Both the position numbers and the translations under genes were made by a program. Source: a virus. From it: 64,000 nt of DNA. The notes beneath the pieces are model-generated. The model saw nothing but the letters and a program-made list of their open reading frames with translations. It had not been told where the DNA came from and made no database searches. Shown here in pieces: positions 71 through 64,000 of this stretch (position 1 is the first letter of the stretch; each line of letters starts with the position of its first letter). Location: positions 1-64,000 of the IMG/VR virus record IMGVR_UViG_3300020200_000009; one strand, written 5' to 3'.

Positions 71-1312
71 ATGAAACTTCGTCCCCACCAGATTCGTGCA
101 CTTGATGCAATGCGTCAACATTGCAAAGGTCAAATTGTCATTCCTACTGGTGGTGGCAAGACTTTTGTGATGATTCACCATACGCTGCATCTTCTCAACA
201 ATCCCCGCACGATTGTTGTTGTTGCTCCGCGTATTCTTCTTGCTACTCAACTGTGTGATGAGTTCGTGCAAGAGTTGCAGGAGCATCCTCACAATGCAGT
301 GCATGTATGTCATGCTCACAGCGGAGAATCGCACTATTTTCACTCTACCAACAGTGACAACATTGCGCTTTTCAATAATACTGCGCGAGCAGCAGGTGAG
401 TCCTGCATCATATTCACTACCTACCACAGTTTGCCCCGCATTGTTGATGCTGGCATCGACGTAGATTGTATCTATTTTGATGAGGCACACAATGGTTGCG
501 CGAAGTCTTTCTTTGTGAGTGTTGCTGCGATGTCTGACATGGCACAATCTTGCTACTTCTTCACTGCAACTCCGCGCATCTCTCAGAAACATGACCGTGG
601 CATGAATTATGTGCCTGTGTGGGGTAACGTTATCGAGAATGTGCCCGCACCTGAGTTGATTGCTGGTGGTAGTATTATTCCTCCCACTATCGTACCTTTT
701 CACACCGAGCATACTGTAGACAAGCAGAATCCGCATATTGTGCACTCTAACACTGTGCAAGATATCATCGACAATCTCGATGAAACTCATGCTGCTAAGG
801 TGTTGGTTGCTGTGCCATCTTCCAAGGTGCTCGGTAACATCCTCGGTCACACAGATATCATCAGTCAACTGCAAGAGCGTGGATACGATGTACTCCACGT
901 CACATCCAAGTTCGGTGCTTATGTCAATCAAACCAAAGTCAATCGCGAAAAGTTCTTTGAAACTCTCACTCAATGGGGTAAAGATGAAGCGCGTAAGTTT
1001 GTTCTCTTTCATTACAGCATCCTGTCGGAAGGTATCAACGTCCCTGGTCTCACTCACACGATACTTCTGCGGAATCTTAACATCGTCGAAATGGCACAAA
1101 CTATCGGTCGCGTTATCAGACTTGATAGGAGAGATTCCGCTGACATTGCGAGCGGTGCTATTCCTCCTGGCGCTCTGCATTTGTATCGCAAATCCACTGG
1201 TTACGTTACTGTGCCTGTGCATCGCAATTATGGTCCCCAAATTATCAAACGACTGCAGCGAGTAGTTGATGAGATCTTTGTGAATGGCACCGCTCCCACC
1301 GCTCTCGTGTGA
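71..1312 (+). CDS. Superfamily II (DEAH) helicase, type III restriction Res-like
   Basis: Walker A PTGGGKT, DEAH, FTATP (motif III), SEGINVP (V), QTIGRVIR (VI). Confidence 0.9.
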   Translation: MKLRPHQIRALDAMRQHCKGQIVIPTGGGKTFVMIHHTLHLLNNPRTIVVVAPRILLATQLCDEFVQELQEHPHNAVHVCHAHSGESHYFHSTNSDNIALFNNTARAAGESCIIFTTYHSLPRIVDAGIDVDCIYFDEAHNGCAKSFFVSVAAMSDMAQSCYFFTATPRISQKHDRGMNYVPVWGNVIENVPAPELIAGGSIIPPTIVPFHTEHTVDKQNPHIVHSNTVQDIIDNLDETHAAKVLVAVPSSKVLGNILGHTDIISQLQERGYDVLHVTSKFGAYVNQTKVNREKFFETLTQWGKDEARKFVLFHYSILSEGINVPGLTHTILLRNLNIVEMAQTIGRVIRLDRRDSADIASGAIPPGALHLYRKSTGYVTVPVHRNYGPQIIKRLQRVVDEIFVNGTAPTALV

Positions 1313-1353
1313 CCTGGTGTCCTACCATCACAAACACCATCAGCACCGCTGTA

Positions 1354-1413
1354 GTGGACACTATGACGAACTGTCCACCAGAGGTCGCCAGGCGCCCCCA
1401 GAGACCCTATATT
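1354..1413 (+). promoter_or_regulatory. Early promoter cassette: inverted repeat + sigma70-like promoter
   Basis: GTGGACA-N11-TGTCCAC (1354-1378), then TCGCCA(1385-1390)-17 bp-TATATT(1408-1413). Confidence 0.7.
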
Positions 1414-1458
1414 AAAGAGGTCAAGGGGGGAAAGACCTCCCACACTTAATTCCCAATC

Positions 1459-1632
1459 GTGAATCGTCAAGAACTTCTCGAAGCATACATCGACCGCATC
1501 CTTGACAACATGTCCACCAAAGATTTGATGCGTTTGGTAGGCGACCAGATCGAAGAAAATCTCTCTGGTTATAGCGACGAGGAACTGATTGCAGAGGTTG
1601 AAGAATATTATCCTGACCTGCTGGAGGACTGA
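1459..1632 (+). CDS. Small acidic hypothetical protein (57 aa, GTG start; not in the ORF track)
   Basis: Translated by hand: MNRQELLEAYIDRILDNMSTKDLMRLVGDQIEENLSGYSDEELIAEVEEYYPDLLED; fills the gap between two promoter cassettes. Confidence 0.8.
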   Translation: MNRQELLEAYIDRILDNMSTKDLMRLVGDQIEENLSGYSDEELIAEVEEYYPDLLED

Positions 1633-1638
1633 GACTCC

Positions 1639-1698
1639 GTGTGACAGTCCCCGAACTGTCCACAAGGGGTTGCAATCCCCCCCAATCGCTGCCATACT
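1639..1698 (+). promoter_or_regulatory. Early promoter cassette: inverted repeat + sigma70-like promoter
   Basis: GTGTGACAGT-N6-ACTGTCCAC (1639-1663), then TTGCAA(1670-1675)-17 bp-CATACT(1693-1698). Confidence 0.75.
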
Positions 1699-1724
1699 AC
1701 AAGAGTCAACCAAACAACCCAACC

Positions 1725-2039
1725 ATGCGTAAGATTGAATCCAAGATGAATGACGCCATCATCGATGGCAAGGATTTCAAGTCTGGCAACACTCAAGTCG
1801 TCACCATCAGCGACGTGTCGTTTGTCTATCTGCACGGCAATCACATCGCTTCCATTGGCAACGACTTCATCCAACTCTTCTCTGGTGGTTGGCACTCTGT
1901 GACCACCAAATCTCGTCTCAATGCACTTCTCTCCGTGCATGGTCTGCCTGGTGAGAAAGTCTTCCAGAAGAACTTTCAGTGGTTTGTGCAACAGGAAGGT
2001 GGTGCAATTCCTTTCTTTGATGGTATGCGTCTCGCTTGA
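1725..2039 (+). CDS. Hypothetical protein (MRKIESKM..., cyanophage early-region type)
   Basis: ATG at 1725 lies downstream of the promoter cassette; the track's 1641 start falls inside the promoter. Confidence 0.8.
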   Translation: MRKIESKMNDAIIDGKDFKSGNTQVVTISDVSFVYLHGNHIASIGNDFIQLFSGGWHSVTTKSRLNALLSVHGLPGEKVFQKNFQWFVQQEGGAIPFFDGMRLA

Positions 2040-2077
2040 TGAAACGACTGACATTCAAGAAAATCTCTCCTCAGAAA

Positions 2078-2203
2078 ATGAAACTACTCTCTCTCACTTT
2101 CCTGGTTTGCTTTCTTCTCTTCCCTTCAGTGCGATATAAAACTGGTAGCGTCATTCATGCTGCTGCCGATGTTATCCAGTCCACCGCACAATCTGCAGAA
2201 TAA
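2078..2203 (+). CDS. Small membrane/secreted peptide (41 aa)
   Basis: MKLLSLTFLVCFLLFPSVRYKTGSVIHAAADVIQSTAQSAE; hydrophobic N-terminus; stop 3 nt before the next ATG. Confidence 0.6.
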   Translation: MKLLSLTFLVCFLLFPSVRYKTGSVIHAAADVIQSTAQSAE

Positions 2204-2206
2204 ATC

Positions 2207-2404
2207 ATGCAATTCCAAGTTACCTACATTGAGTTCGATTTCGACGGTGAAGATGATATAGATGCCTATGAGAAAGACACCATTACTTCCGAAGTGATTG
2301 GTACATTCTGGGAAGCAGTAGATGAAGATGACCTCGTAGAAGAAATTACATGTGCATCAGGTTGGTGCATCAAGTCCATCGATTATCGTCACATTCTCAA
2401 CTAA
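2207..2404 (+). CDS. Acidic hypothetical protein (65 aa)
   Basis: ORF track; tight packing; C-terminal DLVEEITCASGWCIKSIDY resembles cyanophage early hypotheticals. Confidence 0.8.
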   Translation: MQFQVTYIEFDFDGEDDIDAYEKDTITSEVIGTFWEAVDEDDLVEEITCASGWCIKSIDYRHILN

Positions 2405-2409
2405 ACATC

Positions 2410-2520
2410 ATGTCTCGCTCACAACGTCAATCTCACATGGTTAAAACGAATACGACCCCGATTCGTTCTAACTTCGCTTCACACAACAAATATCTTGCTC
2501 AATCTCGCCCCTCTAAATAA
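2410..2520 (+). CDS. Possible small basic peptide (36 aa)
   Basis: MSRSQRQSHMVKTNTTPIRSNFASHNKYLAQSRPSK; fills the intergenic gap. Confidence 0.4.
   Translation: MSRSQRQSHMVKTNTTPIRSNFASHNKYLAQSRPSK
2513..2519 (+). promoter_or_regulatory. T4-like late promoter (CTAAATA)
   Basis: Matches the gp55-type (A/C)TAAATA motif 21 nt upstream of ATG 2541. Confidence 0.5.
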
Positions 2521-2540
2521 AATTACATACATTATATCCA

Positions 2541-3182
2541 ATGACATCCAATCCACTCTCTGATAATCTTACTGAAACAATCGCTAATCAACAGGAAACC
2601 TACGGTGTGTTTCCTATTCCAGTTTCTAAGATTAAACTCGCAAATCATGAAACTTACAAGAAGCAAATCCTTAATTGGATGAGTACGCAAGATTTTTTGA
2701 AGCAACACGGTCGCGAAGCAATTTGTTTTAATGTCTTACAAGTTGGACCCACAAATCAACTCCTTCTCGATCTACCTGACCTCGCTCAAGATATACTCGA
2801 CGCTGTTAATAAACATAACGACAACGCTCACAAATATGCTTCCAATCTTGCCATCTCTGAATCATACCTAGAACTCCACAATAAAGGTGCAATCTATGCT
2901 CCTCACGAGCACTCGAATTGTTTATTCTCTCTTACCTATTTTGTCAACTATGATGTAGAACGACATGCTTACCTAAAGTTTAGACGTAACGTGTCTTCCA
3001 TGCATTACCCTGTCATCCAAATTGATTCCAAAGAGATGACACCTTACAACATGACCGAAGCAACATTTAACATGGCAGAAGGTGATGTTGTCATCTATCC
3101 TGCTAATATGACCCATGGTTATGATAACAACTACAACGATGAAAGAATCACTCTCACTGCCAACATCGTCCCCTCTGAATGA
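2541..3182 (+). CDS. 2OG-Fe(II) oxygenase (TIGR02466-like)
   Basis: N-terminal FPIPV, HEH metal motif, EGDVVIYPANMTH distal His, RITLTANI C-terminal Arg strand. Confidence 0.85.
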   Translation: MTSNPLSDNLTETIANQQETYGVFPIPVSKIKLANHETYKKQILNWMSTQDFLKQHGREAICFNVLQVGPTNQLLLDLPDLAQDILDAVNKHNDNAHKYASNLAISESYLELHNKGAIYAPHEHSNCLFSLTYFVNYDVERHAYLKFRRNVSSMHYPVIQIDSKEMTPYNMTEATFNMAEGDVVIYPANMTHGYDNNYNDERITLTANIVPSE

Positions 3183-3183
3183 T

Positions 3184-3217
3184 AGTTTTCCACAGATTCC
3201 GCAGATTGTGGAAAACT
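3184..3217. repeat. 11-bp inverted repeat made of two opposed TTTTCCACA boxes (terminator and/or DnaA boxes)
   Basis: AGTTTTCCACA (3184-3194) and TGTGGAAAACT (3207-3217), followed by a T run. Confidence 0.8.
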
Positions 3218-3347
3218 TTTAAATGTTAAAATAAATATAAACTAGCGAAGTATTCGTCTCGTTATTCTTTAGATCTATTGTAGTCTTAGAGCGTAACACA
3301 TGAAACGAGATTTTGTCAACACATCAGCATCCCAAATATGCAAGGAC

Positions 3348-3376
3348 TTGACAAACACTTTGCTACTCTCTATAAT
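3348..3376 (+). promoter_or_regulatory. Perfect sigma70 consensus promoter
   Basis: TTGACA(3348-3353)-17 bp-TATAAT(3371-3376), upstream of ATG 3400. Confidence 0.85.
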
Positions 3377-3399
3377 TACAAAGCAACCACGCAAACTAC

Positions 3400-3588
3400 A
3401 TGGGAAGGACATACAAACGCAACGACCTACATAACACACGACGCCCGAAAAGTATCAGGGAAAAACGTCAATTCAATGGCAGCAAACGCCAGACTAATTT
3501 TGACAACGATTCCCAGGACTTTTCCACAGGGTATAACAAACTGCCCCGACAGTATGACAATTATTTCGAGGAACATGACGATGCTTAG
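3400..3588 (+). CDS. Hypothetical protein with a basic N-terminus (MGRTYKRND...)
   Basis: First ATG after the consensus promoter. Confidence 0.75.
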   Translation: MGRTYKRNDLHNTRRPKSIREKRQFNGSKRQTNFDNDSQDFSTGYNKLPRQYDNYFEEHDDA

Positions 3589-3745
3589 TAATGCCTACGA
3601 TGACCCACATGACCGCTCGCTCATTGATAGCGATGACGTTGATGATGACTGGATTGATAGTATACTGAAAGAGGCAGATGATGACCTCTACGATGATGCT
3701 AGTTTACTCGAATTCGCTCCTGATGATAGGGGGGACTGGTCATGA
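3581..3745 (+). CDS. Very acidic small protein (~54 aa)
   Basis: C-terminal part of track ORF 3338-3745; GAGG RBS at 3568; start 3575 or 3581; ATGA overlap with the next gene. Confidence 0.65.
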   Translation: MLSNAYDDPHDRSLIDSDDVDDDWIDSILKEADDDLYDDASLLEFAPDDRGDWS

Positions 3746-3909
3746 GTAAGATAGTCGAATTGCAGACAATTCCTCCCGTTAATGTTAAACTATGGGAGAA
3801 GAATAAGCGTTATTTCTGGGCATATGATTATGATGCATGTCCTAAGAATGGTCCATTCAATTCCTCCAACCTTGCATTAGCGGACGCCTTAGACTATAGC
3901 ACAAAATGA
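3742..3909 (+). CDS. Hypothetical protein (55 aa; not in the ORF track)
   Basis: MSKIVELQTIPPVNVKLWEKNKRYFWAYDYDACPKNGPFNSSNLALADALDYSTK; ATGA overlaps at both ends. Confidence 0.75.
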   Translation: MSKIVELQTIPPVNVKLWEKNKRYFWAYDYDACPKNGPFNSSNLALADALDYSTK

Positions 3910-4103
3910 ATAGTATGTCAACCCACATTGAGGTCCAATTGGATCTATATGATGAAGGACAATTACCACCAGAAGAGCAAGTGCAACTCATGCAATTATT
4001 GATAGATATGGATATGGCACATCACCTCACAGAGTATCAACAATTCTGTGAATATTGCATCGCTGAAGAGTTATGCTATGATGTGAAATCACAGTGCAGT
4101 TGA
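3906..4103 (+). CDS. Acidic hypothetical protein
   Basis: ORF track; coupled to the upstream gene by ATGA. Confidence 0.7.
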   Translation: MNSMSTHIEVQLDLYDEGQLPPEEQVQLMQLLIDMDMAHHLTEYQQFCEYCIAEELCYDVKSQCS

Positions 4104-4272
4104 TGTCTCTGAGGACAGTGTAATCGGTCGCGTTATGTGTATACGCGGTGCGGGTATACGTATATAAAAAACATCCCTAGAGCTAACCTACAACAGTATC
4201 CCAGTGCCCTCGCAATATATCAAAATGAAACTACGGGTCCCCCCATCTGAAAAAAATTTTCCAGGTTATAAA

Positions 4273-4389
4273 TTGTCCACCAGGGTTTCGATAACTGAGC
4301 AAATAGAATACATTTTCATAACCCTCTCAGAGGCGCTTAGAATCGCCTATAATGCCCTTGTCAACACTATCCTTAGAAAAAGTAAGTAA
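4273..4389 (+). CDS. Possible small hypothetical protein (start uncertain)
   Basis: 3' part of track ORF 4204-4389; stop 2 nt before the NlpC/P60 start. Confidence 0.35.
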   Translation: MSTRVSITEQIEYIFITLSEALRIAYNALVNTILRKSK

Positions 4390-4391
4390 CT

Positions 4392-4892
4392 ATGAGTAAT
4401 CGTGACAATGAATGGTTTGCCATTAACGAACAATGGAAAGACTTGATAGGTCTTCCATGGACAGGCAGACGTATATACGGATGTTATGAAATTATTCGAA
4501 AATATTTCAAAGCGAAGTATGGGATGAAGTTGATTGATTTCAATAAGATGGGAGTCTTTGCATTTACAGATGAGGCAATTGAAGAGAGTGCTGCTGGGTG
4601 GGCTTATAGAAAAGAATGGGGAGATGAATTAGACTTTGATAGTTTACAAGCAGAAGATGTCTTAGTATTTCTTTTGTATACAACTCCTCTTGGTGGAGCG
4701 TATTCTGCACCAGTAGGGAGAGCACCTAATCACGGGGCAGTTTATCTTGGTAATGGATTTATGTTACATCATCCTTATGATGGTTTGTCGGAAATTGCAG
4801 ACCTCAGACTAGGCGCTTCTGCCATATGGCGTCAATCCTGTGTCGGTGCAATTCGTGGCAATCCTGGTGCAATTCCTGCGAATCCTATATAA
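4392..4892 (+). CDS. NlpC/P60-family cysteine peptidase (lambda gpK C-domain-like)
   Basis: LIGLPW...GCYEIIRKYF catalytic Cys; NHGAVYLGNGFMLHH His motif. Confidence 0.8.
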   Translation: MSNRDNEWFAINEQWKDLIGLPWTGRRIYGCYEIIRKYFKAKYGMKLIDFNKMGVFAFTDEAIEESAAGWAYRKEWGDELDFDSLQAEDVLVFLLYTTPLGGAYSAPVGRAPNHGAVYLGNGFMLHHPYDGLSEIADLRLGASAIWRQSCVGAIRGNPGAIPANPI

Positions 4893-4906
4893 GAGGATAT
4901 AGCAAG

Positions 4907-5077
4907 ATGACTATGAAGAGATATGTTTTAGATGTTGAGGAAGACGAGCATACTGGAGAGTGTTATGTCACATTTCCTGAGGAATTGCTTGAAGAGACTG
5001 GATGGGAAGAAGGCACACAATTAGAATGGTCCGAAGAGATTGATGGATCTATTATCCTTCGGAAAGTTGAAGAGTAA
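4907..5077 (+). CDS. AbrB/MazE/SpoVT-like small DNA-binding protein
   Basis: YVTFPEELLEETGWEEGTQLEW...GSIILRK fits the swapped-hairpin pattern. Confidence 0.65.
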   Translation: MTMKRYVLDVEEDEHTGECYVTFPEELLEETGWEEGTQLEWSEEIDGSIILRKVEE

Positions 5078-5102
5078 AAAAATCCGAAAAACCGCGTTAA
5101 CC

Positions 5103-5369
5103 ATGAATAACGATTATGATAGAGAAGAGGTAGTAGGTGATATTCCTACTGAATTCAACTCACCAGAAGAATATACCACGTGGTGTGTAAATAATTTAGC
5201 GCAAGCAATTACTAATTTATCCACTCGTATTACTAACTTGGAAATGATTATCCAAAAAATACCGCCCCCAGGTGCTGATATGATTCAGTATAAAATTCCA
5301 GGTACGGATGACTATAAAAATGTAAAAGAATTATTTGATGATATCTATTCAAAAATAGAGTCTAAATAA
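5103..5369 (+). CDS. Hypothetical protein with a coiled-coil segment
   Basis: Likely ATG at 5103 within track ORF 5040-5369. Confidence 0.7.
   Translation: MNNDYDREEVVGDIPTEFNSPEEYTTWCVNNLAQAITNLSTRITNLEMIIQKIPPPGADMIQYKIPGTDDYKNVKELFDDIYSKIESK
5362..5368 (+). promoter_or_regulatory. Late promoter CTAAATA
   Basis: 24 nt upstream of ATG 5393. Confidence 0.65.
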
Positions 5370-5392
5370 TTCAACGCAAGAGTTTCCGTATA

Positions 5393-8300
5393 ATGCCCGC
5401 GTTTATATTAGAAACAGGTAGAGGATATCCAAACCCAATTGATGCTCAGGGGTATAGCACTGTATTTAAACGTCCAGCATCAGGGTCTTACCGTGGCGGG
5501 CACAATCCAAATATTGGCACAGGCACAGATTATCAAATTACATATGAGGGGTCAGGTCCAGGGTCTTTTCCTTTAGGGAAAGATTCTGTGCATTATATTG
5601 GTGACCAAGAACCTACATGTGTTGCAGATTGTGGTAAAACTAGACGACCCATATATCGTTGGTATCGTGGTGTAAAGAGAGACCATAAGTATACCTCAGA
5701 ACCTGAAATCCGCAAAGTGGATATGGGTTGCGAAAATGAGGATTGGAAAGAGGCAGCATCTGGTTACAATGCAGAGCCTCGTAGTAAAAAAGGTGTCTTC
5801 TATGTAATGGACCGCTACGTTAATGGTAGTGTGCCGCTAAAGGCTTGGTATTCACATTGGCCTGATAATTCATATTTAACTATAGGCACCAACCTACCCG
5901 AACCAGCGCAGATTGGTTGCGGGAGAAACTATTATACAGAAGTCGAAACCCTTGGATATGTTTTTACTACTCAAGCTGCAGCAGCTGCATATGGTGCGAC
6001 AGTAAAACCTTTACACCATTATCGTATGGGGAATTATGGTGACGGTAATGGTGAAGCAAAAGCGATTGATGATTTTTATACAATCACTCCAGAGAGTGAA
6101 GTTAATCTAGATGGTCCAATCGAGCCAGCGAAGCGGATGAAGCGGGAGTATAAGTATAAGGGAATTCTCTGCTATGTCTTTGTAGAAAGCTCACCAGAAT
6201 CTCCTCGTAAAAAAGTAGTTGATATTGGAAAGATTGGACCTACAGGACAATGTGTTGATAAGTCTGGATGGTATCAATTTAAATCAACAGGAATATTTTC
6301 ATATCGAGGTTATCGTACTATGTCTGGGACACCAGGTGTAGTTGGATTTGGTAATCCAGATAATGCTTCTATTATTTCAGCAAATGCAAACTTCGAATGG
6401 TTGTATGGATTAAATGGGGCTATTAAAGGAGCAGTGCCTCGGTTTCTAAGTTTTGAAGATTCATATGATTCTCAGTTTGTGTATTACCTATATGATACTT
6501 CATATCCATGGAATGGTCCTATCTTTGGTATTCAATACTTATTGAATAATGTGCCATGTTGCCCAAATGCCATGATAGGCCCCCCACCAACACCAATCTG
6601 TAATAAGGTAGAGAATTATCATTCTCACTTTTATCAAATCCGCCAGGATTCTTGGCAAACAACAAGAACTAAATTAACAATTAATGATTTGTCTACTTAT
6701 GGTGTAAATGAATCGTTTGTCACTATCGATACTGATAGTCCTAGAATCATGTTTAGATATCTTACTCGCACTGGAGATTATAATAGTGGCGAGAAAATTA
6801 ATGGATGGAATATTACTAAGGTTTTATATTATGGGGATGAATTGAAATGTGGTGTTATGGACCTAACCAAAAATGATGGAGTTGGAAATGCATTTACTTA
6901 TTTACAACAATTCACATCTACAGACGGTGGCACAATTCAAGTATTAGCAGGATTTGGAATTGGTAACAAAGCAGCGTTTGCTGGTGTGTATGAATTTCCT
7001 AAGAAAGTTTCTTACTATAAAGTTGAAATTAATCCCGAACATTTGATTCCGTCACGCACACTTGATGTAGCAAAAGCAGAAGCAGTCGTGAATGAAGTTG
7101 GAGCAATTACTTCTGTTAATATAATTAATGGTGGACGTGGTTATAGGAAACCTAATGTAGTTGCAATCTATCCTCGTGTCGATCAGAGTTGGTCTGCAAC
7201 TGACCTTGCAAAAACTCAAGAGGGTGCACTGAGTGGCACTACAGATGCAGCAGAAGCTTTACCAAGACCAGAAGTTGATGGTCAAATAAATGATGTAGTG
7301 CGTGATGCAGTTAAAGCACAGGGGATTGAGGATAAGAGAATTAAATTTCCCATAGACAAAGATGGGGATAAATTTGAATTGCGTCAAGCAAAATTAAAGG
7401 TTACCGAATTAAGTCCAGATGGTGTAATCATGTCCATTGGTGTTGTGGATGGTGGGGCAGGATATAGTCAATCTGAATTACCATCAGTCTTTATTACAGA
7501 CCCAGATGTATACACCCGAAAAGCTGAGGACCTTGGTCCTTTGGATAAGGAAACAGATTATTTTACCAAGGATGCATTCAAAAACGTTAAGATTCCATCG
7601 AGTGTAGGTAGTAGTGGTGGTGATGGAATAAGTCAATTAAAAAATATTATACAATCATCATTTAACATACTACAACAAAATACTGGAGGCGATCTTAATG
7701 CTGGTGGAGCGGTGCAGGTGCCAGACAGTTATATTCGCATGGCAGAAATAGATACTGCTAAAACTAGATATTGTACTAATCTACCAGCAACTTGTATTAA
7801 CATTGATGGTGATACTGGTGGAGTCCTTACGTCATTGCCAAACGCAGAAAATTTTAAATACCTGATGGCAAATAGTGGATTTGCAAAGTTTTATAAAGAA
7901 GGAATGTCTCAAGTATATGATATTGTTAAAAAGAATGATGAGCATAGTCGAACTGTTGGGAAAGGACTATATGGTGCCCAAGGAGGAAATCCTTGCCTGG
8001 ATGTATCACAACCCAAACTGTACAACGTACAACGTTGGTTTGATGTGCCTTGTGCATACTTAGCAGTTGGGTCTGATGGCAAACAAAAAGCTTTTGGATA
8101 TATGCCATTTAAATATTGTGCTTCAAATGAGATAGATGCATCCTTTACAGTTTCGTTGCATTTTGAAGGCAGCACAATAGGTCCACAAGGTGCACAATTT
8201 ATGAATTTTCTCAACACCTTTAAAAAACCAAAATTAACAGAAAAACGCAAAGCAGACGGTGGATATAAAACTTGGAGTTGCACTCAAGGGGTTGTAAAAG

Positions 8301-57292: not shown

Positions 57293-58960
57293 ATGGACTT
57301 GTATATGTCATTTTCAAAATTTATGTCCGAGGAAGGTGCGGACAGAATTAAAGATCGTAGACTTGAAAGAGGTGGCATGGATGGCAATACACGATATCCT
57401 ACAAAACCGTCTACATCTGCACCACAATCTGATGCTGATAGAAAAGCAGCAATGGATAAGCATAGACAGACTGCCAATGACGCACTAGCTGCAGTGAGAG
57501 CATCAATAGCAAAAAAGTATGGTAGTAAAGCTCTCCTTCCTAATAGAAGTGAAGAAACAGTCTTTGAAAAACTTGGACTGTGGGACCGCATCCATGCTAA
57601 AAGAAAGCGTGGAGAACGTCCAGCCAGACCAGGTGAAAAAGATTATCCAAAAACTTTAAACGTTGAAGCAAGAGTAGATGATAGGATTCCAGAATGGAAA
57701 AGATCTGCTGCTAGAACTGATAGATATGGTAATCCACATGGTTCTGTGGGCAGTGGACCTCAGAGAGATCGTAGAGCAGAGCATGAAGAAAGAAGAGGTG
57801 TCAAGACTAAGGGGTCTAGGGTTACAGAAGACACTATTCAGGAAGATGAGTATCGTAGATTAATGGCGCAAGAGCGTCGGGATGAGCGAAATAGAGAACA
57901 AGCGCGTGCTGGTCGCAAGAGCATTACTCCTGGGGTCCGAGCCGCCAGTGCTGGTAGAGACTATGCTAATAGCAATATCAAATTTCATGCCAAAGTAACT
58001 GGTAAGACGACAACAACTGAAGAGTCTTTACATGAAGCAGGTGGTCGCCAGGGCGGCGGCACAATTCGACCACCAAAACCAGGCAAAAAACCAGTAGAAA
58101 CTCAACCAACTAATCGTGGTGCTATCCGCTTCGGAAAAGTTAATTCTTCTTATGCACCAGAAGGTGAGGTTATTGATGAAGCAGGTGACTATTGGCATCC
58201 AGATCCAGAAAAAGATAAGAAAATTAGTGGTGCTGGAAATAAACTTCGTGCACGTGAAGATCAAGCAGCTTCTCAACAACCAAAAGAAGACCCTAAGAAA
58301 CTACGTCCTGGGGAATCTTACTCAGATTATTCTAATAGAATACAAGGAAAGACTAAACCACAACCCGTAGCAAAACCTTCTCTTTCAGATAGAATAAAAA
58401 ATAAACTTGGTAAAGTAATTGATAAAGTCGGAGGTATTAAAACCGAAGGTTGTATTACATATCGGGATTTTATCTTAGAGGGTAATCGCACTGCTCGTAT
58501 GCTGCATAAATCAAACACTAAAGTCACAGGTCATATTTCTGCAGATCGTGGCAACGATGAGAGTAAGAATCGTGAAGGTCGTAAGACTCTTGAGAAAGAC
58601 CTTAAGAAGCACGGCATTGGACATAAGAAAGGTGTAGGTGAATATAAGTATGACAGTGGAGAAACTGGTAGAGAAGTTTCCTATCAAACATCTAAACCAG
58701 ATAAAATGTCTAAGCGTAGATTTGGAAAGGTAATGCGTCGTCTTGGTCGTAAACATGGTCAGGAATCTGTTATTACAAAAGATTCCAGCAAACCTGCTAA
58801 ACTACATTACACTGAGAAAGGTAGTAAAGCAAAGTCTGACTCTATTGGCAAATCTAAAGCTGGCAAGCACCCCGAAGGCTATGGTGAAACATCTGGCACT
58901 AAGGTGAGAGGCGGCAAACTTCCTGCTAAAACAACTAAAGGGTCTTATCATTATGGATGA
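57293..58960 (+). CDS. Putative internal head polyprotein (basic modules separated by Glu linkers)
   Basis: MSFSKFMSEE capsid-targeting-like motif (ATG 57305); repeated x-x-E linkers; Lys/Arg-rich modules. Confidence 0.7.
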   Translation: MDLYMSFSKFMSEEGADRIKDRRLERGGMDGNTRYPTKPSTSAPQSDADRKAAMDKHRQTANDALAAVRASIAKKYGSKALLPNRSEETVFEKLGLWDRIHAKRKRGERPARPGEKDYPKTLNVEARVDDRIPEWKRSAARTDRYGNPHGSVGSGPQRDRRAEHEERRGVKTKGSRVTEDTIQEDEYRRLMAQERRDERNREQARAGRKSITPGVRAASAGRDYANSNIKFHAKVTGKTTTTEESLHEAGGRQGGGTIRPPKPGKKPVETQPTNRGAIRFGKVNSSYAPEGEVIDEAGDYWHPDPEKDKKISGAGNKLRAREDQAASQQPKEDPKKLRPGESYSDYSNRIQGKTKPQPVAKPSLSDRIKNKLGKVIDKVGGIKTEGCITYRDFILEGNRTARMLHKSNTKVTGHISADRGNDESKNREGRKTLEKDLKKHGIGHKKGVGEYKYDSGETGREVSYQTSKPDKMSKRRFGKVMRRLGRKHGQESVITKDSSKPAKLHYTEKGSKAKSDSIGKSKAGKHPEGYGETSGTKVRGGKLPAKTTKGSYHYG

Positions 58961-59099
58961 AAAACATCAATTTTCAGAAGATTTGAAATGTAAATTCTGT
59001 GGAATAACTCCACCCAAAGGACATTGGAGACCTAATACTTGGTTACAAAAACATGAGGAGAATTGTCCTCTTAATCCATCGCTTGCAGACAAACAATGA
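58953..59099 (+). CDS. Small C2HC zinc-finger protein (48 aa; not in the ORF track)
   Basis: MDEKHQFSEDLKCKFCGITPPKGHWRPNTWLQKHEENCPLNPSLADKQ; overlaps both neighbours. Confidence 0.7.
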   Translation: MDEKHQFSEDLKCKFCGITPPKGHWRPNTWLQKHEENCPLNPSLADKQ

Positions 59100-59680
59100 A
59101 TACTTTTCAAGAGTTTATAACAGTTACTGAAGGTCTTGATATGAAGACCTTCAAAGCAAATCGTAGAAAAGCACAGAGAACTGCTGCAACTGCTGATGCT
59201 CGTAAGAGAGGGCACGAAGGACACGAATGGCACAATACTGGAAGAACTTATAGTCCAGATGAAGCAAAGTCTCGTCGTGCAAATATGTCCGATGATGATA
59301 GAGCAGCAAGACACCGTGCTGCTGTAGATCCTGATGATGATCGTGATGAGAATACATACTCAGCAACTAAGACTAAGAATCCTAGGAAGCAACGTAAGCA
59401 GGCTGCCATGGGGGAGGGTGTGACTTACCGCGACTTCATTACAGAAGTTGCAGCGTGGCAACGTAAAGAAGGTAAGAACAAAACAGGTGGACTTAACGAA
59501 ATAGGACGCAAATCTTACGAGGCAGAAAATCCTGGGTCGGATTTAAAACCACCCCAACCTGGTGGTGGTCCACGTAAGAGGTCATTCTGTGCCCGTATGG
59601 GTGGGGTGAAGGGACCGATGAAAGATGAAAAAGGTCGCCCAACAAGAAAAGCACTAGCACTAAGAAAGTGGAAATGCTGA
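59096..59680 (+). CDS. Putative internal head protein with a DUF6321-like C-terminal module
   Basis: MNTFQEFI capsid-targeting-like start; second TYRDFITE; AWQRKEGKN..GGLN..GRKSY...SFCARMGG...ALRKWKC. Confidence 0.75.
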   Translation: MNTFQEFITVTEGLDMKTFKANRRKAQRTAATADARKRGHEGHEWHNTGRTYSPDEAKSRRANMSDDDRAARHRAAVDPDDDRDENTYSATKTKNPRKQRKQAAMGEGVTYRDFITEVAAWQRKEGKNKTGGLNEIGRKSYEAENPGSDLKPPQPGGGPRKRSFCARMGGVKGPMKDEKGRPTRKALALRKWKC

Positions 59681-59749
59681 CATAGTATCATTAGATATAT
59701 TTTAATTCTATTAAATAGTGATATACTTTCAGTAGTTGCTTGATACAAT

Positions 59750-59977
59750 ATGGTAACATTTTATTTTACTCTCGCTATCATAGTATTATTGCTTTGGTAT
59801 GGGGGATTAGACGGCACTCTGCGATTATTTGCATATGTCGATTTGCAAATAAGATATGCTGGTATTCAAGCACAACTGTCATGGATGCGTTGGAAACTTA
59901 AGAAGCAACTTATTAAGGATACAACAGAATTCCAAAAGTTTCTTCAAAAAGAGGACAAATATGAAAGAAATATCTAA
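59750..59977 (+). CDS. Small membrane protein
   Basis: N-terminal hydrophobic helix FYFTLAIIVLLLWYGG. Confidence 0.7.
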   Translation: MVTFYFTLAIIVLLLWYGGLDGTLRLFAYVDLQIRYAGIQAQLSWMRWKLKKQLIKDTTEFQKFLQKEDKYERNI

Positions 59978-60221
59978 TCTTTCTATAGAAAGAAAAGAAT
60001 GTGAAAGATGTGGTGCAATATGGATGAATGGAGAACACTACTGGTCTGGCACAGGAAAGAAAGGTAATGAATTAGATCTTGCTGGGTTAGTTTGTAATTC
60101 AATAAAAGCACCAGAATGTATAAATCCTAGTTTAGGAAAAAACGGGGGCGACACCTGGGAGAAAAGATTGACAGATTTAAATAATGACCATCCATTCAAT
60201 CACCAGTCAACAATTAAATAA
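59961..60221 (+). CDS. Hypothetical Cys-containing protein (CxxC...HYWSGTG)
   Basis: GAGGA RBS before ATG 59961 within track ORF 59856-60221. Confidence 0.75.
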   Translation: MKEISNLSIERKECERCGAIWMNGEHYWSGTGKKGNELDLAGLVCNSIKAPECINPSLGKNGGDTWEKRLTDLNNDHPFNHQSTIK

Positions 60222-60258
60222 TCCTATATATTAATACTGGCATACAAGGAGATGGAGG

Positions 60259-60375
60259 ATGTCCAAGTCCCCAAACAAAGGTAAAAAGGGTTCTCCTGGA
60301 GGTCAAAAGAACTCCAAACAGAATCAAGGAAATGCTACTGCTAAGAAAGCAAAGAATGGTGGCAAGAAAAAATGA
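60259..60375 (+). CDS. Tiny Lys/Gly-rich basic peptide (38 aa; not in the ORF track)
   Basis: MSKSPNKGKKGSPGGQKNSKQNQGNATAKKAKNGGKKK; AGGAG upstream; ATGA overlap with the next ORF. Confidence 0.65.
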   Translation: MSKSPNKGKKGSPGGQKNSKQNQGNATAKKAKNGGKKK

Positions 60376-60584
60376 TTCCTCTAATCCTGGCATCAATTTT
60401 TACAGCTACTCCCATGGGACCTGGACAGGTACCTCACTTTATGAGAACTTGTGATAGAATACGTATTCATGATGCTAAGTCAGGCACCAATTGGATTCTT
60501 TGTATCAACGGTGTTTATCAGTTTCCTAAAAACGGAAAACCTCAGGACAGGAGTTTGCCACAACATAAACAACAATTAATTTAA
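60372..60584 (+). CDS. Hypothetical protein with a signal-like N-terminus
   Basis: ORF track; coupled start. Confidence 0.6.
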   Translation: MIPLILASIFTATPMGPGQVPHFMRTCDRIRIHDAKSGTNWILCINGVYQFPKNGKPQDRSLPQHKQQLI

Positions 60585-60588
60585 TAGT

Positions 60589-60744
60589 ATGAACTATATT
60601 GTATTTGCTATTGTTGGGATGGTAGAGACTGGACCGAATGTATGTAAGATTGATTACTTACGTTATGTTGATGTTGCGTCAGTAACCATTCCTTGCAATG
60701 TCATCAAACTAAATACTATACAGGACCCAGGACAAAAGAAATGA
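60589..60744 (+). CDS. Hypothetical protein (51 aa; not in the ORF track)
   Basis: MNYIVFAIVGMVETGPNVCKIDYLRYVDVASVTIPCNVIKLNTIQDPGQKK; ATGA overlap with 60741. Confidence 0.6.
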   Translation: MNYIVFAIVGMVETGPNVCKIDYLRYVDVASVTIPCNVIKLNTIQDPGQKK

Positions 60745-61010
60745 GATTAAAAATTATAGGAACAGAGGTAGCTTTAGCAACCACAGCAGCAGCAGCAAGC
60801 GACTTTAGTAACGCAAGAGAAGTTCGTCTTGTGCATGACGCTACTGCTGCTACAACTCATTTAGTGACAATCACCGATTCTAGTGGCACTACATTGGCAA
60901 CTTTTAGTATGCCAGCATCAAATGTTGTTGTTATTAGAAAAGAGCCAACCCATAAAATTTTTGCTTCTAATGATGATATTAGAGGAGTAGCAGTTTCATA
61001 CGTCTCGTAA
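60741..61010 (+). CDS. Small putative virion protein
   Basis: ATG 60741 downstream of late promoter CTAAATA (60709-60715); beta-rich sequence. Confidence 0.75.
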   Translation: MRLKIIGTEVALATTAAAASDFSNAREVRLVHDATAATTHLVTITDSSGTTLATFSMPASNVVVIRKEPTHKIFASNDDIRGVAVSYVS

Positions 61011-61016
61011 TAAAAC

Positions 61017-61640
61017 ATGATTGATAATGCGATTATGCTTGATAAGCGTAATCAAGTTGTGGTAATTGATAACTTGTTTACACTTGCAGAAATTGAATAC
61101 ATCCATGAGTATTTTTTAAAATTCGATGGGTGGCAGTTTATTTTCGATGATTCTCCAGAAGACGATACTGCATATTATTCCTTGGGTAGAGTAGTAGACC
61201 AACCAAACTTTGGTGAGTTTGAAAATTTTTGCATTGATTATGCATTTAAACGAGCGGGAATTCCTATACCAAAATTTCACCGTTGCGTACATAATGCATT
61301 TAGATTTGGAGATACTGCTGGACTTCACGTAGATGGAGAGCATCTAGATGCTCTCAGTTTTTTGATATACGGTAATAAAGAGTGGCACCACAGTTGGGGT
61401 GGTGAAACAGTTTTTATGCTTAACAATGAAATATCAGATATTGTAATCCCCAAACCTGGAAGGTGTGTCGTTTTTCCTGGTTTAGTTTTACACGGGGCAA
61501 AACCACTATCGAAAATTCATAAGTTTCCTGCTAGATATAGTGCTGTCTTCCAATACTGTCCAGGTCAAGAAGACGCAGTGTTAGCACATGCTGCTACACA
61601 ACCAAAAAATACTAGAACATTTCCTCATGTCTCAACCTGA
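61017..61640 (+). CDS. 2OG-Fe(II) oxygenase, prolyl-hydroxylase-like
   Basis: LHVD (HxD), WHHSWGGETVF, PKPGRCVVFPG..LH, RYSAVF. Confidence 0.88.
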   Translation: MIDNAIMLDKRNQVVVIDNLFTLAEIEYIHEYFLKFDGWQFIFDDSPEDDTAYYSLGRVVDQPNFGEFENFCIDYAFKRAGIPIPKFHRCVHNAFRFGDTAGLHVDGEHLDALSFLIYGNKEWHHSWGGETVFMLNNEISDIVIPKPGRCVVFPGLVLHGAKPLSKIHKFPARYSAVFQYCPGQEDAVLAHAATQPKNTRTFPHVST

Positions 61641-63279
61641 TATTTACTTAGGCAATCCTAATCTTAAGCGGGTTAATGTTGCACAAAATTTTACACCAGA
61701 TGAAGTAAAGGAGTATATTAGGTGTAGTAAAGATCCAGTTTACTTTATAAAAAAATACATTAAGATTATTTCGCTTGATAGAGGTTTGATTCCTTTTGAG
61801 ATGTATGACTTTCAATCTGATATGGTTGAGAAGTTTCATGAGAATAGATTTAATATTGCAAAACTACCTCGACAGTCTGGAAAGTCCACAGTAGTTACTG
61901 CATATCTACTTTGGTATTCTCTTTTCAATGCAAACTCAAACATTGCTATCCTTGCTAACAAAGCAGCAACAGCAAGAGAAATGTTACAACGTTTACAACT
62001 ATCATATGAAAACCTCCCAAAATGGATGCAGCAAGGAGTTGTCAACTGGAACAGAGGTAGTCTGGAATTGGAAAATGGAAGCAAAATCATGGCTGCTTCT
62101 ACTTCTGCATCTGCTGTCCGTGGTATGTCCTTTAATATTATATTTTTGGACGAATTCGCGTTTATTCCGACGCACATTGCTGATGAGTTTTTTAGCTCTG
62201 TGTATCCTACTATTTCCTCTGGTACATCTACTAAGGTCATAATCATTTCTACACCGAAGGGAATGAATATGTTTTATAAACTTTGGCATGATGCGGAATT
62301 GAGTAGAAATGAATATGTTACTACTGAAGTGCATTGGTCTCAGGTGCCTGGGAGAGACTCTGACTGGAAAGAACAAACAATCCGAAATACTTCAGAAGAG
62401 CAATTTAATCAGGAATTTGAGTGCGAATTTTTAGGGTCTGTTAATACTCTTATTACATCTGCTAAGTTGAAGACCTTAGTATATGACACACCAATTACAT
62501 CTAATGCTGGATTAGATGTATACGAAGACCCAGAAGAAGACCACACATATGTTATGACTGTAGACGTTGCACGAGGACTGACAAAAGATTACTCAGCATT
62601 CTGTGTGATTGATACAACCACTATCCCATATAAATTAGTAGCAAAATATCGCAACAACAAGATTAAACCATTGCTATTTCCAAACGTAATCAATGATGTA
62701 GCAAGAGCATATAACCATGCGTATGTCATGGTAGAAGTTAATGATATTGGTGGGCAGGTAGCGGACACACTTCAGTTTGACTTAGAGTATGATAACTTAT
62801 TAATGTCTTCCATGAGGGGCAGAGCTGGACAAGTAGTAGGGCAAGGATTTTCTGGGTCAAAAGTGCAATTAGGAGTTAAGATGTCCACAGCAGTTAAAAA
62901 AACTGGATGTGCAAACATGAAACAATTGGTCGAAGATGATAAACTAGTCTTTACTGACTATGATATTATTTCAGAGTTAACTACCTTTATTCAAAGAGGT
63001 CCAGCGTGGGAAGCAGAAGAAGGGTGTAATGATGACCTTGCAATGTGTCTTGTAATTTTTAGTTGGTTAGCAACTTCAGATTACTTTAAAGAATTACATA
63101 ATGATGATGTCCGTAAGAGAATGTATCTTGAGCAAAAAGAAGCAATCGAAGCAGATATGTCACCTTTTGGATTTATCGATGATGGGATTAGTGGAGACAC
63201 TACATTTGTAGATGAAGATGGTCAAGTCTGGCATACTCCAGAGTATGGGGATATGGCATACATGTGGGAATATAGATGA
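61627..63279 (+). CDS. gp17: Terminase large subunit gp17
   Basis: YLGNPNLK, PRQSGKST Walker A, IFLDEFAF Walker B, ISTPKG, VDVARG..DYSAF, NDDLAM; start ATG 61627. Confidence 0.97.
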   Translation: MSQPDIYLGNPNLKRVNVAQNFTPDEVKEYIRCSKDPVYFIKKYIKIISLDRGLIPFEMYDFQSDMVEKFHENRFNIAKLPRQSGKSTVVTAYLLWYSLFNANSNIAILANKAATAREMLQRLQLSYENLPKWMQQGVVNWNRGSLELENGSKIMAASTSASAVRGMSFNIIFLDEFAFIPTHIADEFFSSVYPTISSGTSTKVIIISTPKGMNMFYKLWHDAELSRNEYVTTEVHWSQVPGRDSDWKEQTIRNTSEEQFNQEFECEFLGSVNTLITSAKLKTLVYDTPITSNAGLDVYEDPEEDHTYVMTVDVARGLTKDYSAFCVIDTTTIPYKLVAKYRNNKIKPLLFPNVINDVARAYNHAYVMVEVNDIGGQVADTLQFDLEYDNLLMSSMRGRAGQVVGQGFSGSKVQLGVKMSTAVKKTGCANMKQLVEDDKLVFTDYDIISELTTFIQRGPAWEAEEGCNDDLAMCLVIFSWLATSDYFKELHNDDVRKRMYLEQKEAIEADMSPFGFIDDGISGDTTFVDEDGQVWHTPEYGDMAYMWEYR

Positions 63280-63280
63280 T

Positions 63281-63526
63281 ATGACAGAAGAGTTTGGTAT
63301 AGACCTAGAGCACTTTCTTTTTGTAGACCGACAGTGTAGGAAATGTCTACGTATTATGTCACTGGTAGATAATTTTTATTTGACAAGAAAAGATAGAGGA
63401 TCTAATCCATCAGCATACTCATATGTGTGTAAAGAGTGCACCATAAAAAGAGTATCTAAAACTTACCGAGCGGGAATAAAGCATAAAAAAGAAGTATGTA
63501 TTGATGAAAATTATCCCGATTGGTAA
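63281..63526 (+). CDS. Zinc-ribbon protein (CxxC...YxCKEC), resembling an endonuclease N-terminal domain
   Basis: RQCRKC...FY.TRK.RG...YSYVCKEC; between gp17 and gp18. Confidence 0.7.
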   Translation: MTEEFGIDLEHFLFVDRQCRKCLRIMSLVDNFYLTRKDRGSNPSAYSYVCKECTIKRVSKTYRAGIKHKKEVCIDENYPDW

Positions 63527-63573
63527 TATTTTTTTATTCACGTCATATTTCCCCTCTGTAAACATAGAAAATT

Positions 63574-63580
63574 CTAAATA
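63574..63580 (+). promoter_or_regulatory. Late promoter CTAAATA
   Basis: Upstream of the AGGAG RBS and gp18 ATG. Confidence 0.7.
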
Positions 63581-63621
63581 GTTTCAGCATCCAATGATTG
63601 AATCTATCAAGGAGATTACAG

Positions 63622-64000
63622 ATGGCATCAACACAGCTTTCCCCAGGGGTTGTTGTACTAGAAAGAGATCTTACGAGTGTAGTAAACTCGACTGTCGATA
63701 ATATTGCTGCCATCGTCGGCGCATTTGAAAAGGGTCCTGTAGAGCAAGTAACCACTGTCACTAGTGAGAAGGAACTTCTCTCTATCTTTGGTCGTCCAAA
63801 CGACTATAACTACGAGTATTGGTTTTCAGCAGCGCAATTCCTGCTGTATGGTGGCTCACTCAAAGTAGTGAGAGCGTTTAACGCTTCCCTTAAAAATGCA
63901 ATTGATAGTGCTCAGTTTGTAGTAAATAATTTTTCAGCATCAGATACTACTCTGACTGTTGTTTCTGCAGTAGATTTTGATGTCAATGACATCCTTCTGA
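63622..64000 (+). CDS. gp18: Tail sheath protein gp18 (5' part, runs off the window)
   Basis: MASTQLSPGVVVLERDLT...GAFEKGPV...IFGRP...YEYWFSAAQFLLYGG.L.VVR; open to the window end. Confidence 0.93.
   Translation, partial: MASTQLSPGVVVLERDLTSVVNSTVDNIAAIVGAFEKGPVEQVTTVTSEKELLSIFGRPNDYNYEYWFSAAQFLLYGGSLKVVRAFNASLKNAIDSAQFVVNNFSASDTTLTVVSAVDFDVNDILL

Follow-up and report, generated by a model that had tools for sequence, protein, structure and literature searches.

A lytic, T4-like lake cyanophage avoids the four-letter word GWWC (GAAC, GTTC, GATC and GTAC). The avoidance is real, it is synonymous and it acts at the DNA level; about 70% of the sites are gone. We analysed a window of 64,000 nucleotides, with which a contig of this phage, 89,743 bp long, begins. 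The window's phage carries a nuclease–methylase cassette of subfamily B upstream of the window (Table 1). This restriction-modification-like pair of the phage itself, encoded just ahead of the window, is probably what drives the loss of GWWC. When a phage avoids restriction sites, a host defence is usually held to have left this footprint; here it points to the phage's own genes.

Table 1. Features of the window and of the adjoining upstream locus (L423).
Feature	Position	Strand	Basis
GWWC-depleted DNA	1..64000	.	runs on to contig end 89,743; codon shuffle, frames, intergenic, bins
Overlap with metagenome contig Ga0194126_10002849 (locus L423)	1..1625	.	blastn 99.8% over 1625 nt
Helicase, DEAD/DEAH (ResIII-type)	71..1312	+	Pfam PF04851, PF00270, PF00271
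Synonymous recoding example, Gly-Thr = GGC/GGG ACN	51121..52800	+	13/15 pairs, against 41 GGT among 74 Gly codons
Nuclease, 198 aa, subfamily B	L423:7525-8121	minus strand of locus	tblastn
Methylase	L423:6623-7462	minus strand of locus	tblastn; Pfam PF01555

Under a Markov model of order 2, the observed/expected ratios (o/e) in the window were 0.35 for GAAC (78/222), 0.20 for GTTC (35/172), 0.35 for GATC (90/256) and 0.30 for GTAC (68/228). Codons were also shuffled synonymously within each of the 24 plus-strand open reading frames (58,281 nt, 300 shuffles). These frames held 241 GWWC where 790.5 ± 17.3 were expected (o/e 0.30, z −31.7), and the lowest count in any shuffle was 734. The original prediction of a synonymous avoidance is thus borne out under a codon-preserving null. 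The control words CWWG, GWWG and CWWC had ratios of 1.02, 1.18 and 1.09 in the same shuffle. For the whole contig (85,239 coding nt, 200 shuffles) the observed/expected counts were 99/299 for GAAC, 57/260 for GTTC, 116/316 for GATC and 85/267 for GTAC; by z, no other of the 256 tetramers was as depleted as these four. The loss was even along the contig, with GWWC ratios of 0.18–0.55 in 45 of 45 bins of 2 kb. Intergenic DNA (3,783 nt) held 14 GWWC against 47.3 ± 6.5 expected, and none of 1000 shuffles was as low.

All 12 motif-by-frame cells were depleted (o/e 0.13–0.69). Frame-0 sites, in which the C opens a codon and a C-to-T change is mostly non-synonymous, were as depleted as those in the other frames, and the changes there lie in the codon before, at its third base. 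It is therefore the word that seems to be selected against, and single-base decay is not indicated. A mutation bias without selection, for example if a modified cytosine in GWWC were deaminated, would suit a methylase that possibly acts on cytosine N4, as its SPPY motif suggests. Yet besides the frame-0 result, the one-base neighbours of GWWC rise evenly in the window shuffle (GWWT 1.11, AWWC 1.09, GWWG 1.18), and we regard such a bias as very improbable.

The recoding is visible codon by codon. The share of GGT drops from 50% to 9% ahead of ACN or TCN. Ahead of CNN, the share of GAT drops from 83% to 25%, that of GAA from 79% to 31% and that of GTT from 48% to 6%. The hand tallies that accompanied the original prediction were all reproduced: the Gly-Thr preference (Table 1), 6 GWWC in 13261–14400, no plus-strand GTTC between 2465 and 9136, and a bias that reaches into the early helicase gene, which holds 7 GWWC.

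The avoidance had been linked to phosphorothioation, since Dnd systems modify DNA at GAAC/GTTC and GATC. To our knowledge GTAC is not among the Dnd motifs, and it is equally depleted here. None of 401 sampled host-family genomes, many of them incomplete, and none of 5 named picocyanobacteria gave a match to DndC (TIGR03183). The window's helicase reached 30.7 bits against the Dnd restriction model, which has a cut-off of 600. Loci of Prochlorococcus and Synechococcus/Cyanobium, marine or mixed hosts and not the lake host itself, had GAAC/GTTC ratios of 0.76–1.17 and no loss of these words or of GATC. Among the literature matches listed for Prochlorococcus and phosphorothioate, none dealt with phosphorothioated cyanobacterial DNA. 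Thus the link finds no support, and we give next to no weight to host Dnd/Ssp systems, or phosphorothioate-dependent nucleases, selecting against GAAC/GTTC and GATC, although these words match.

The cassette was located on locus L423, which overlaps the start of the window and prolongs the phage genome 7.2 kb upstream. Both genes lie on the window's plus strand, 5.0–6.5 kb before window base 1, with the methylase directly downstream of the nuclease and co-oriented. L423 was covered throughout at one depth per run in four lake runs, and a 513-nt contig bridges its junction with the window. The helicase at the start of the window is a conserved early-region gene and a neighbour of the cassette in related phages. 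In loci where the helicase was seen, the cassette lay 2–7 kb upstream or about 0.7–1 kb downstream of it, with the exception of one locus at about 0.1 kb upstream.

The nuclease belongs to an uncharacterised PD-(D/E)xK family with the fold of restriction enzymes (NaeI/EcoRV-like), judged by structure models (pLDDT 88.7 and 89.2). It has no Pfam family and no matching sequence family. A G-Y-D...E-x-K motif is invariant in two alignments, as G88, D90, E99 and K101 across 29 sequences and as G80, D82, E91 and K93 across 21 sequences headed by the protein of the window's phage. In VIA-align, the best 14 and 16 structural matches of the two models were all restriction endonucleases. NaeI was the top match (Z 9.7, rmsd 4.2 over 158 residues; second model Z 9.0 over 156), at Z values modestly above the best Z of 7–8 usual in such searches. 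In Foldseek nothing reached E ≤ 0.001; the best match, at E 2e-3, was also NaeI. The nuclease profile matched 0 of the 401 sampled host-family genomes, with its matches among whole phage genomes as positive control. The partner gene encodes a predicted beta-class N6/N4 DNA methylase (PF01555 N6_N4_Mtase, E 5.5e-43). Its best PDB match is the cytosine-N4 methylase 8S9M (E 4.8e-17).

We then compared 80 IMG/VR loci, each encoding a methylase related to gp060 of P-TIM40. In most of these, a nuclease-like reading frame ended −13 to +154 nt from the methylase start; the nuclease gene is gp059 in P-TIM40 and gp61 in Syn9. GAAC/GTTC o/e was below 0.5 in 63 of the 80 cassette loci and below 0.35 in 53, against 10/80 and 17/80 below 0.5 in control loci anchored on TerL and gp8. 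The other 17 cassette loci were not below 0.5, and 7 of the 80 reached at least 0.7 (L309, L311, L327, L328, L335, L336 and L338). As a control for the genome region, helicase-anchored loci were used. The five with the methylase were all depleted (GAAC/GTTC o/e 0.07–0.11), whereas among the 75 without it only 2 fell below 0.5 and 70 were at 0.7 or above; both depleted methylase-negative loci end at the upstream contig edge. Among whole genomes, P-TIM40, Syn9 and G402 match the nuclease profile and 3/3 are depleted, with an o/e of 0.08 in P-TIM40 against 0.3 in the window's phage. No match was found in the whole genomes of S-WAM1, S-TIM4, S-SZBM1, P-RSM6, P-SSP7, Syn5 and G412, and 0/7 of these are depleted (o/e 0.85–1.05). 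The loci are mutually related, so that Fisher values for this association overstate independence. The association could also stem from a shared host range and not from cause.

The set of words that a phage loses varies with the subfamily of its nuclease, as compared after leaving out 13 of the 80 loci without a classifiable adjacent nuclease. In subfamily A (n = 40), GAAC/GTTC was below 0.5 in 37 loci and GATC in none. In subfamily B (n = 11), GAAC/GTTC and GATC were each below 0.5 in 10, and this subfamily goes with loss of all four words. In subfamily C the pattern varies between subclades. The earlier treatment of GWWC as one unit therefore holds for this phage, in which all four are reduced to the same degree, just like in other carriers of its subfamily. 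It is not universal, as close relatives such as P-TIM40 keep GATC and lose GAAC/GTTC and GTAC. The pattern of subfamily A, with GAAC/GTTC and GTAC lost and GATC kept, is unlike that of a simple palindrome reader. An additional strong loss, of TGAAC and TGATC, does not follow from the proposed cassette mechanism.

Host restriction enzymes, either one reading GWWC or separate ones for GAAC, GATC and GTAC, might instead select against the words, with the phage methylase as a counter-measure and the neighbouring nuclease-like gene unrelated. Under-use of short words is classically taken as a sign of host restriction. For CCGG the count is 0, with 80.5 expected, and RGCY is scarce family-wide, with or without the cassette. 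Some losses also occur in cassette-free DNA, of GTAC in S-TIM4 and of GATC without GAAC in L219/L220, L184 and L189; evidently there are further agents, which could contribute to the loss in this phage. However, avoidance would be expected to ease under a protecting methylase, and still the carriers are the depleted ones, and the pattern tracks the nuclease subfamily. Podoviruses of marine picocyanobacteria (GAAC/GTTC 1.00 in P-SSP7, 0.88 in Syn5) are undepleted, as are the sampled host loci, and a passage of one source describes restriction-modification as uncommon in marine picocyanobacteria (PMC6708340). We consider host restriction unlikely as the main agent. The selecting agent, first sought in a host defence, is thus most likely phage-borne, and the 'undescribed nuclease/modifier' that had also been suggested is its best reading.

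Less likely still, host enzymes of type IV, which cut only modified DNA, would select against GWWC-type words once the phage methylase has marked them. This would fit four loci with the methylase and no nearby nuclease, in which GAAC/GTTC is still at 0.39–0.63 (L326, L331–L333). Loci with an adjacent nuclease are far more depleted (0.02–0.3), and a reason for keeping so costly a methylase is not evident.

We therefore return to the phage's own cassette. The nuclease would cut G-W-W-C words, as read from k-mer footprints alone, in host DNA, in rival-phage DNA, or in both; GWWC words occur every 50–93 bp in cyanobacterial DNA. The methylase would mark the sites left in the phage's own DNA, perhaps at cytosine N4. 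Newly replicated phage DNA would never be completely marked, and because of this each site would be a small risk. Selection would then exchange about 70% of the sites through synonymous codons. The contig retains 374 GWWC sites, one per 240 bp, so that protection must rest on the predicted methylase. A nuclease with a methylase covering the leftover sites fits the partial loss, and the 'partially penetrant' system once proposed is not needed. More tentatively, T4-like cyanophages may possess a mobile, fast-diverging type II restriction-modification family of their own, built on a new nuclease family, with 4-bp specificities that all lie within G-W-W-C (GAAC/GTTC alone, these with GTAC, or full GWWC). 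We know of no characterised restriction enzyme with a GWWC or GAAC site. If this reading is true, a new nuclease family would be at hand, perhaps with new 4-bp specificities for reagents. The specificity of an enzyme would also be readable from the k-mer footprint of its carrier, and orphan nucleases could be assigned. A passage of a 2010 review states that cyanomyoviruses lack denA, denB and ndd and calls their host-DNA breakdown 'as yet un-described' (PMC2984593). A nuclease that cuts GWWC-type words would offer cyanomyoviruses a mechanism for this breakdown and for self/non-self discrimination, with host or rival-phage DNA cut and their own spared without these three genes. The cassette is present in the cultured phages P-TIM40 and Syn9, and thus the idea is directly testable.

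Bacterial genomes with type II restriction-modification avoid their own recognition sites (Rusinov et al. 2015, PMC4687349). Like these carriers, the bearer of the nuclease–methylase pair under-uses its presumed target word, with a partial loss and a methylase that would cover the rest. In contrast to them, we are dealing with a lytic T4-like phage and a degenerate 4-bp word, and the nuclease belongs to an unnamed family whose specificity we infer. The nuclease is likest the PD-(D/E)xK type II endonucleases NaeI, EcoRV, SfiI, BglI, SwaI and DpnI (PDB 1EV7, 1EO3, 2EZV, 1DMU, 5TGQ and 4ESJ), with Z 5–9.7 over 140–180 residues and the D...E-x-K in common, but identity is just 6–14%, with no sequence-family match, and the recognised sites differ. 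With Dnd phosphorothioation two of three word classes coincide; unlike there, the searched hosts yielded no dnd genes, GTAC is not covered and the depletion tracks a phage gene. Restriction-modification genes of chloroviruses (such as CviAII and CviJI; PBCV-1 and relatives) are said to degrade host DNA, and in that literature the virus is described as relying on methylation and is not known to rely on avoidance at the codon level. Chloroviruses infect algae and their proteins are unrelated, but they share with our phage a virus-borne 4-bp cutter, here a predicted one, beside a methylase, host DNA full of sites, and degenerate 4-bp sites, such as RGCY in their case.

GWWC words (GAAC, GTTC, GATC and GTAC) were strongly depleted in the window. 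Under an order-2 Markov model the observed/expected ratios (o/e) were 0.35 for GAAC, 0.20 for GTTC, 0.35 for GATC and 0.30 for GTAC. The original prediction had described a synonymous avoidance of these words from hand counts and codon switches, all of which were reproduced on recount. The depletion also held under a null model in which synonymous codons were shuffled inside each of the 24 plus-strand ORFs of the window: 241 GWWC were observed against 790.5 ± 17.3 expected (z −31.7), and the control words CWWG, GWWG and CWWC had o/e values of 1.02–1.18. Among all 256 tetramers in the whole contig, the four words were the most depleted. The loss was seen in each codon frame and in each 2-kb bin of the contig, and 3.8 kb of intergenic DNA held 14 GWWC where 47 were expected (0/1000 shuffles as low). 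Taken together with the codon switches, GWWC loss therefore attaches to the word in the DNA itself and not to codon pairs. Flanking bases had a further effect. TGAAC/GTTCA reached an o/e of 0.10 in the whole contig and 0.03 in P-TIM40 (NC_028663), and TGATC/GATCA stood at 0.13 in the contig, compared with 0.41–0.51 in other GATC contexts. Host DNA carries one GWWC per 50–93 bp, the window's phage one per 240 bp.

Within an 89,743-bp contig of a T4-like cyanophage, the window makes up the first 64 kb and encodes baseplate, neck and terminase genes (Pfam); the closest cultured relatives by TerL are P-TIM40 (82.7%), S-SZBM1, S-WAM1 and P-RSM6. The window sequence was present in 24 runs from 2018 labelled "lake water metagenome" (0.88–0.96 of sampled words). 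Thus, the phage is a freshwater member of the otherwise mostly marine Kyanoviridae-like group.

For comparison with relatives, 80 IMG/VR loci around TerL and the 41.7-kb TerL regions of four cultured phages were analyzed. GAAC/GTTC was low (0.11–0.30) in exactly 11 members of one TerL clade (SH-aLRT 99), namely the window's phage, P-TIM40 and loci L001–L008 and L028; the sister groups had values of about 0.85–1.1. The small locus L023, beyond this clade, was also low. GATC was normal in the clade except in the window's phage (0.33) and L008 (0 vs 14 expected). In the codon shuffle of the whole P-TIM40 genome, GAAC/GTTC was found 95/1125 times (0.08), GTAC 124/580 (0.21) and GATC 1016/801 (1.27); Syn9 gave 0.21, 0.25 and 0.95, respectively. 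Another 80 loci, taken around gp8 of Syn9 and examined together with S-TIM4, showed all combinations of GAAC, GTAC and GATC loss. Hence the three losses are separable traits that are rapidly gained and lost. Relatives were thus not equally depleted, and GWWC did not behave as one unit across them, since most of the clade keeps GATC; a single GWWC system acting on all relatives was rejected on the same grounds. A single GWAC/GTWC motif is contradicted by loci with GAAC loss only (L249, L193, L218) and by cases with GTAC loss only (S-TIM4, L199).

The original prediction had attributed the avoidance to a host system, possibly one linked to phosphorothioation. DndC was not found in five named genomes or in 401 sampled host-family genomes. 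Prochlorococcus, Synechococcus and Cyanobium loci of at least 9 kb around psbA had GAAC/GTTC values of 0.76–1.17, with no other word of the set purged. In these samples, nothing pointed to phosphorothioation or another host agent as the cause. The podoviruses P-SSP7 and Syn5 were not depleted. Portions of one paper (PMC6708340) describe restriction-modification as uncommon among marine picocyanobacteria, and P-TIM40 and Syn9 as generalists. Avoidance of GAAC by generalists would fit these two phages, but the generalist S-TIM4 keeps the word (1.05).

The depletion was instead associated with a phage-borne cassette of a predicted PD-(D/E)xK nuclease gene and an N6/N4 methylase gene. In P-TIM40, gp059 (206 aa) falls in no Pfam family and runs into the start of gp060, which encodes an N6_N4 methylase; Syn9 gp61/gp62 are the same pair (42% and 78% identity). 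Neither gene is present in the non-depleted S-WAM1. Among 80 loci encoding a gp060 relative, GAAC/GTTC was <0.5 in 63, <0.35 in 53 and ≥0.7 in 7; values <0.5 occurred in 10/80 and 17/80 loci of the two structural-gene samples (TerL and gp8). As the loci with the cassette derive from the early region, a same-region control was made of 80 loci taken around the neighbouring helicase. This sample was drawn with an alignment of four helicases, the helicase of the window's phage alone giving 4 loci. Loci were scored methylase-positive at ≥55% identity over ≥200 aa. All five positive loci were low in GAAC/GTTC (0.07–0.11). Of the 75 negative loci, 70 were ≥0.7 and only 2 were <0.5; in both of the latter the contig breaks off a short way upstream of the helicase. 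Fisher values were small but overstate independence, as the loci are mutually related. At the level of whole genomes, the nuclease profile matched three depleted ones, P-TIM40, Syn9 and the 199-kb record G402. It had no match in seven without GAAC/GTTC depletion: S-WAM1, S-TIM4, S-SZBM1, P-RSM6, P-SSP7, Syn5 and the 182-kb record G412. It also gave no match in the 401 host-family genomes. Profile A1 did not match five fragmentary depleted-phage records, which at 13–28% completeness are uninformative, and TerL of the window's phage had no match in nine of ten cassette-bearing fragments.

In nearly all methylase loci, an ORF of 195–242 aa ends at the methylase start. By motif and tree these ORFs form three subfamilies. 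Subfamily A (E-N/D-K, FATGNN; n=40) had pooled values of 0.15 for GAAC/GTTC, 0.30 for GTAC and 0.94 for GATC, with GATC <0.5 in 0/40. For subfamily B (E-F-K, FATGNK; n=11), to which the nuclease of the window's phage belongs, they were 0.29, 0.37 and 0.29, with GATC <0.5 in 10/11. In subfamily C (ACLGN; n=16), the loss covered GAAC/GTTC alone, GAAC/GTTC and GTAC, or all four words, depending on the subclade. All these patterns fall within G-W-W-C. The comparison excluded 13 loci without a classifiable adjacent nuclease; four of these (L326, L331–L333) had no nuclease nearby and mild GAAC/GTTC loss (0.39–0.63).

The contig itself contains no homologue of the nuclease/methylase pair, and no clade-specific nuclease was seen in it, including by Pfam and PHROGs. 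However, it starts 70 bases before the helicase, and many relatives carry the cassette 2–7 kb upstream of this gene. A 39-base word from the helicase matched one metagenome contig, Ga0194126_10002849 (L423). Its reverse complement agrees with contig bases 1–1625 at 99.8% and continues 7.2 kb further upstream, where both cassette genes lie 5.0–6.5 kb before window base 1. Four lake runs span the whole of L423 at a single depth per run (about 50, 42, 50 and 150-fold), and a 513-nt contig bridges the junction. L423 had o/e values of 0.32 for GAAC/GTTC, 0.46 for GTAC and 0.29 for GATC.

Features of the window's phage and its flanking sequence
Feature	Position	Size	Remarks
Subfamily-B nuclease	Ga0194126_10002849, upstream stretch	198 aa	Identical to nuclease of locus L299
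Methylase	Ga0194126_10002849, beside nuclease		74% identity to gp060
Early-region variant	L423 4383-4649		Form without 223 bases occurs in lake runs
Protein with S-adenosylmethionine lyase domain	Window 57293-58960	555 aa	Between terS and terL; C-terminal PF23780, residues 415-523, E 4.7e-7
D12-class methylase	Contig 86525-87367 (L089:14525-15367)		Beyond window; between clamp-loader genes; annotated dam in P-TIM40 and Syn9
Staphylococcal-nuclease homologue	Contig 88919-89326 (L089:16919-17326)		PF00565, E 4.2e-16

Other candidates were tried and rejected. Relatives of gp074, a CcrM-like methylase of P-TIM40, sit in loci with normal GAAC/GTTC. The PF00565 nuclease is unlinked to the depletion, because tblastn finds a homologue in S-WAM1 and P-RSM6 as well as in P-TIM40. 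The D12 methylase was dropped as the reason why relatives keep GATC: a methylase occupies this position in the window's phage, P-TIM40, S-WAM1 and Syn9 alike, and for the window phage's copy the nearest solved relative is the alpha-class N4-cytosine methylase M.CbeI (7M6B, E 1.4e-49, compared with 2.6e-4 for E. coli Dam). LexA half-sites, MutH and primase sites were also dropped, as selection acts against each individual site and on both strands.

Further words were avoided. CCGG was wholly absent from the window and the contig to base 89743 (0 vs 80.5 expected, codon shuffle), and RGCY was low in the contig (GGCC 13/76, AGCT 102/272, GGCT 44/155, AGCC 43/94). These losses recur in almost every T4-like relative, whether or not it carries the cassette, and are absent in hosts, P-SSP7 and Syn5. 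GCGC was missing from P-TIM40 (0 vs 134 expected) and the P-RSM6 region L081, L084–L087 (0 vs 17), both phages having been isolated on Prochlorococcus NATL2A; in the window's phage it was just mildly low (63/87). Complete GATC loss with normal GAAC/GTTC was found in loci L219 (0/47 expected), L220 (0/82), L335 (1/51) and L336 (0/58), which looks like the work of a separate GATC agent; L335 and L336 have a pair of neighbouring methylase genes as well as a distant gp060 relative. Agents besides the cassette act on the same phage family: loss of CCGG and RGCY is general, and GATC alone or GTAC alone is lost in some phages that lack the cassette. The lyase domain between terS and terL may be an anti-restriction module degrading S-adenosylmethionine.

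Neither Pfam nor PHROGs gives the cassette nuclease a name, and 90 relatives in the databases likewise all lack one. Its G-Y-D, E-x-K and FATGN motifs are invariant. AlphaFold models (pLDDT 88.7 for subfamily A, 89.2 for the window phage's nuclease) were compared with 48,161 PDB chains, and the best 14 and 16 matches were all restriction endonucleases. NaeI ranked first (Z 9.7 and 9.0, rmsd 4.2, 158 and 156 residues), followed by ThaI-type 3NDH, SfiI, SwaI, BglI and DpnI. Foldseek against PDB returned the same enzymes as best matches, the best at E 2e-3 and none at 0.001 or better. The cassette methylase carries S-P-P-Y, a motif (SPPY/F) characteristic of N4-cytosine enzymes, and among PDB entries it matches a cytosine-N4 methylase best. 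Of the bases in the four GWWC words, the 3' C alone is common to both strands of all four, which would make it a candidate target of the methylase.

The simplest reading has the phage avoiding the target of a predicted nuclease that it carries itself, with the methylase covering sites still left. Such avoidance would leave the loss partial and confined to carriers, would shift the set of lost words with the nuclease subfamily, and would leave hosts and other phages untouched. It offers no evident reason for the sparing of GATC in subfamily A carriers. Titles and opening abstract lines yielded no description of the cassette or of GAAC avoidance; no report of cyanophage restriction site avoidance was found, nor anything on restriction or methylation under GWWC, and the portions consulted of PMC8919816 and PMC9516812 mention neither GAAC nor cyanophages. 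Under avoidance of its own nuclease's target, the cassette is a candidate for host-DNA degradation in its carriers, and a role against rival phages is just as possible. Part of a 2010 review (PMC2984593) describes cyanomyoviruses as lacking denA, denB and ndd and as perhaps degrading host DNA by an undescribed route.
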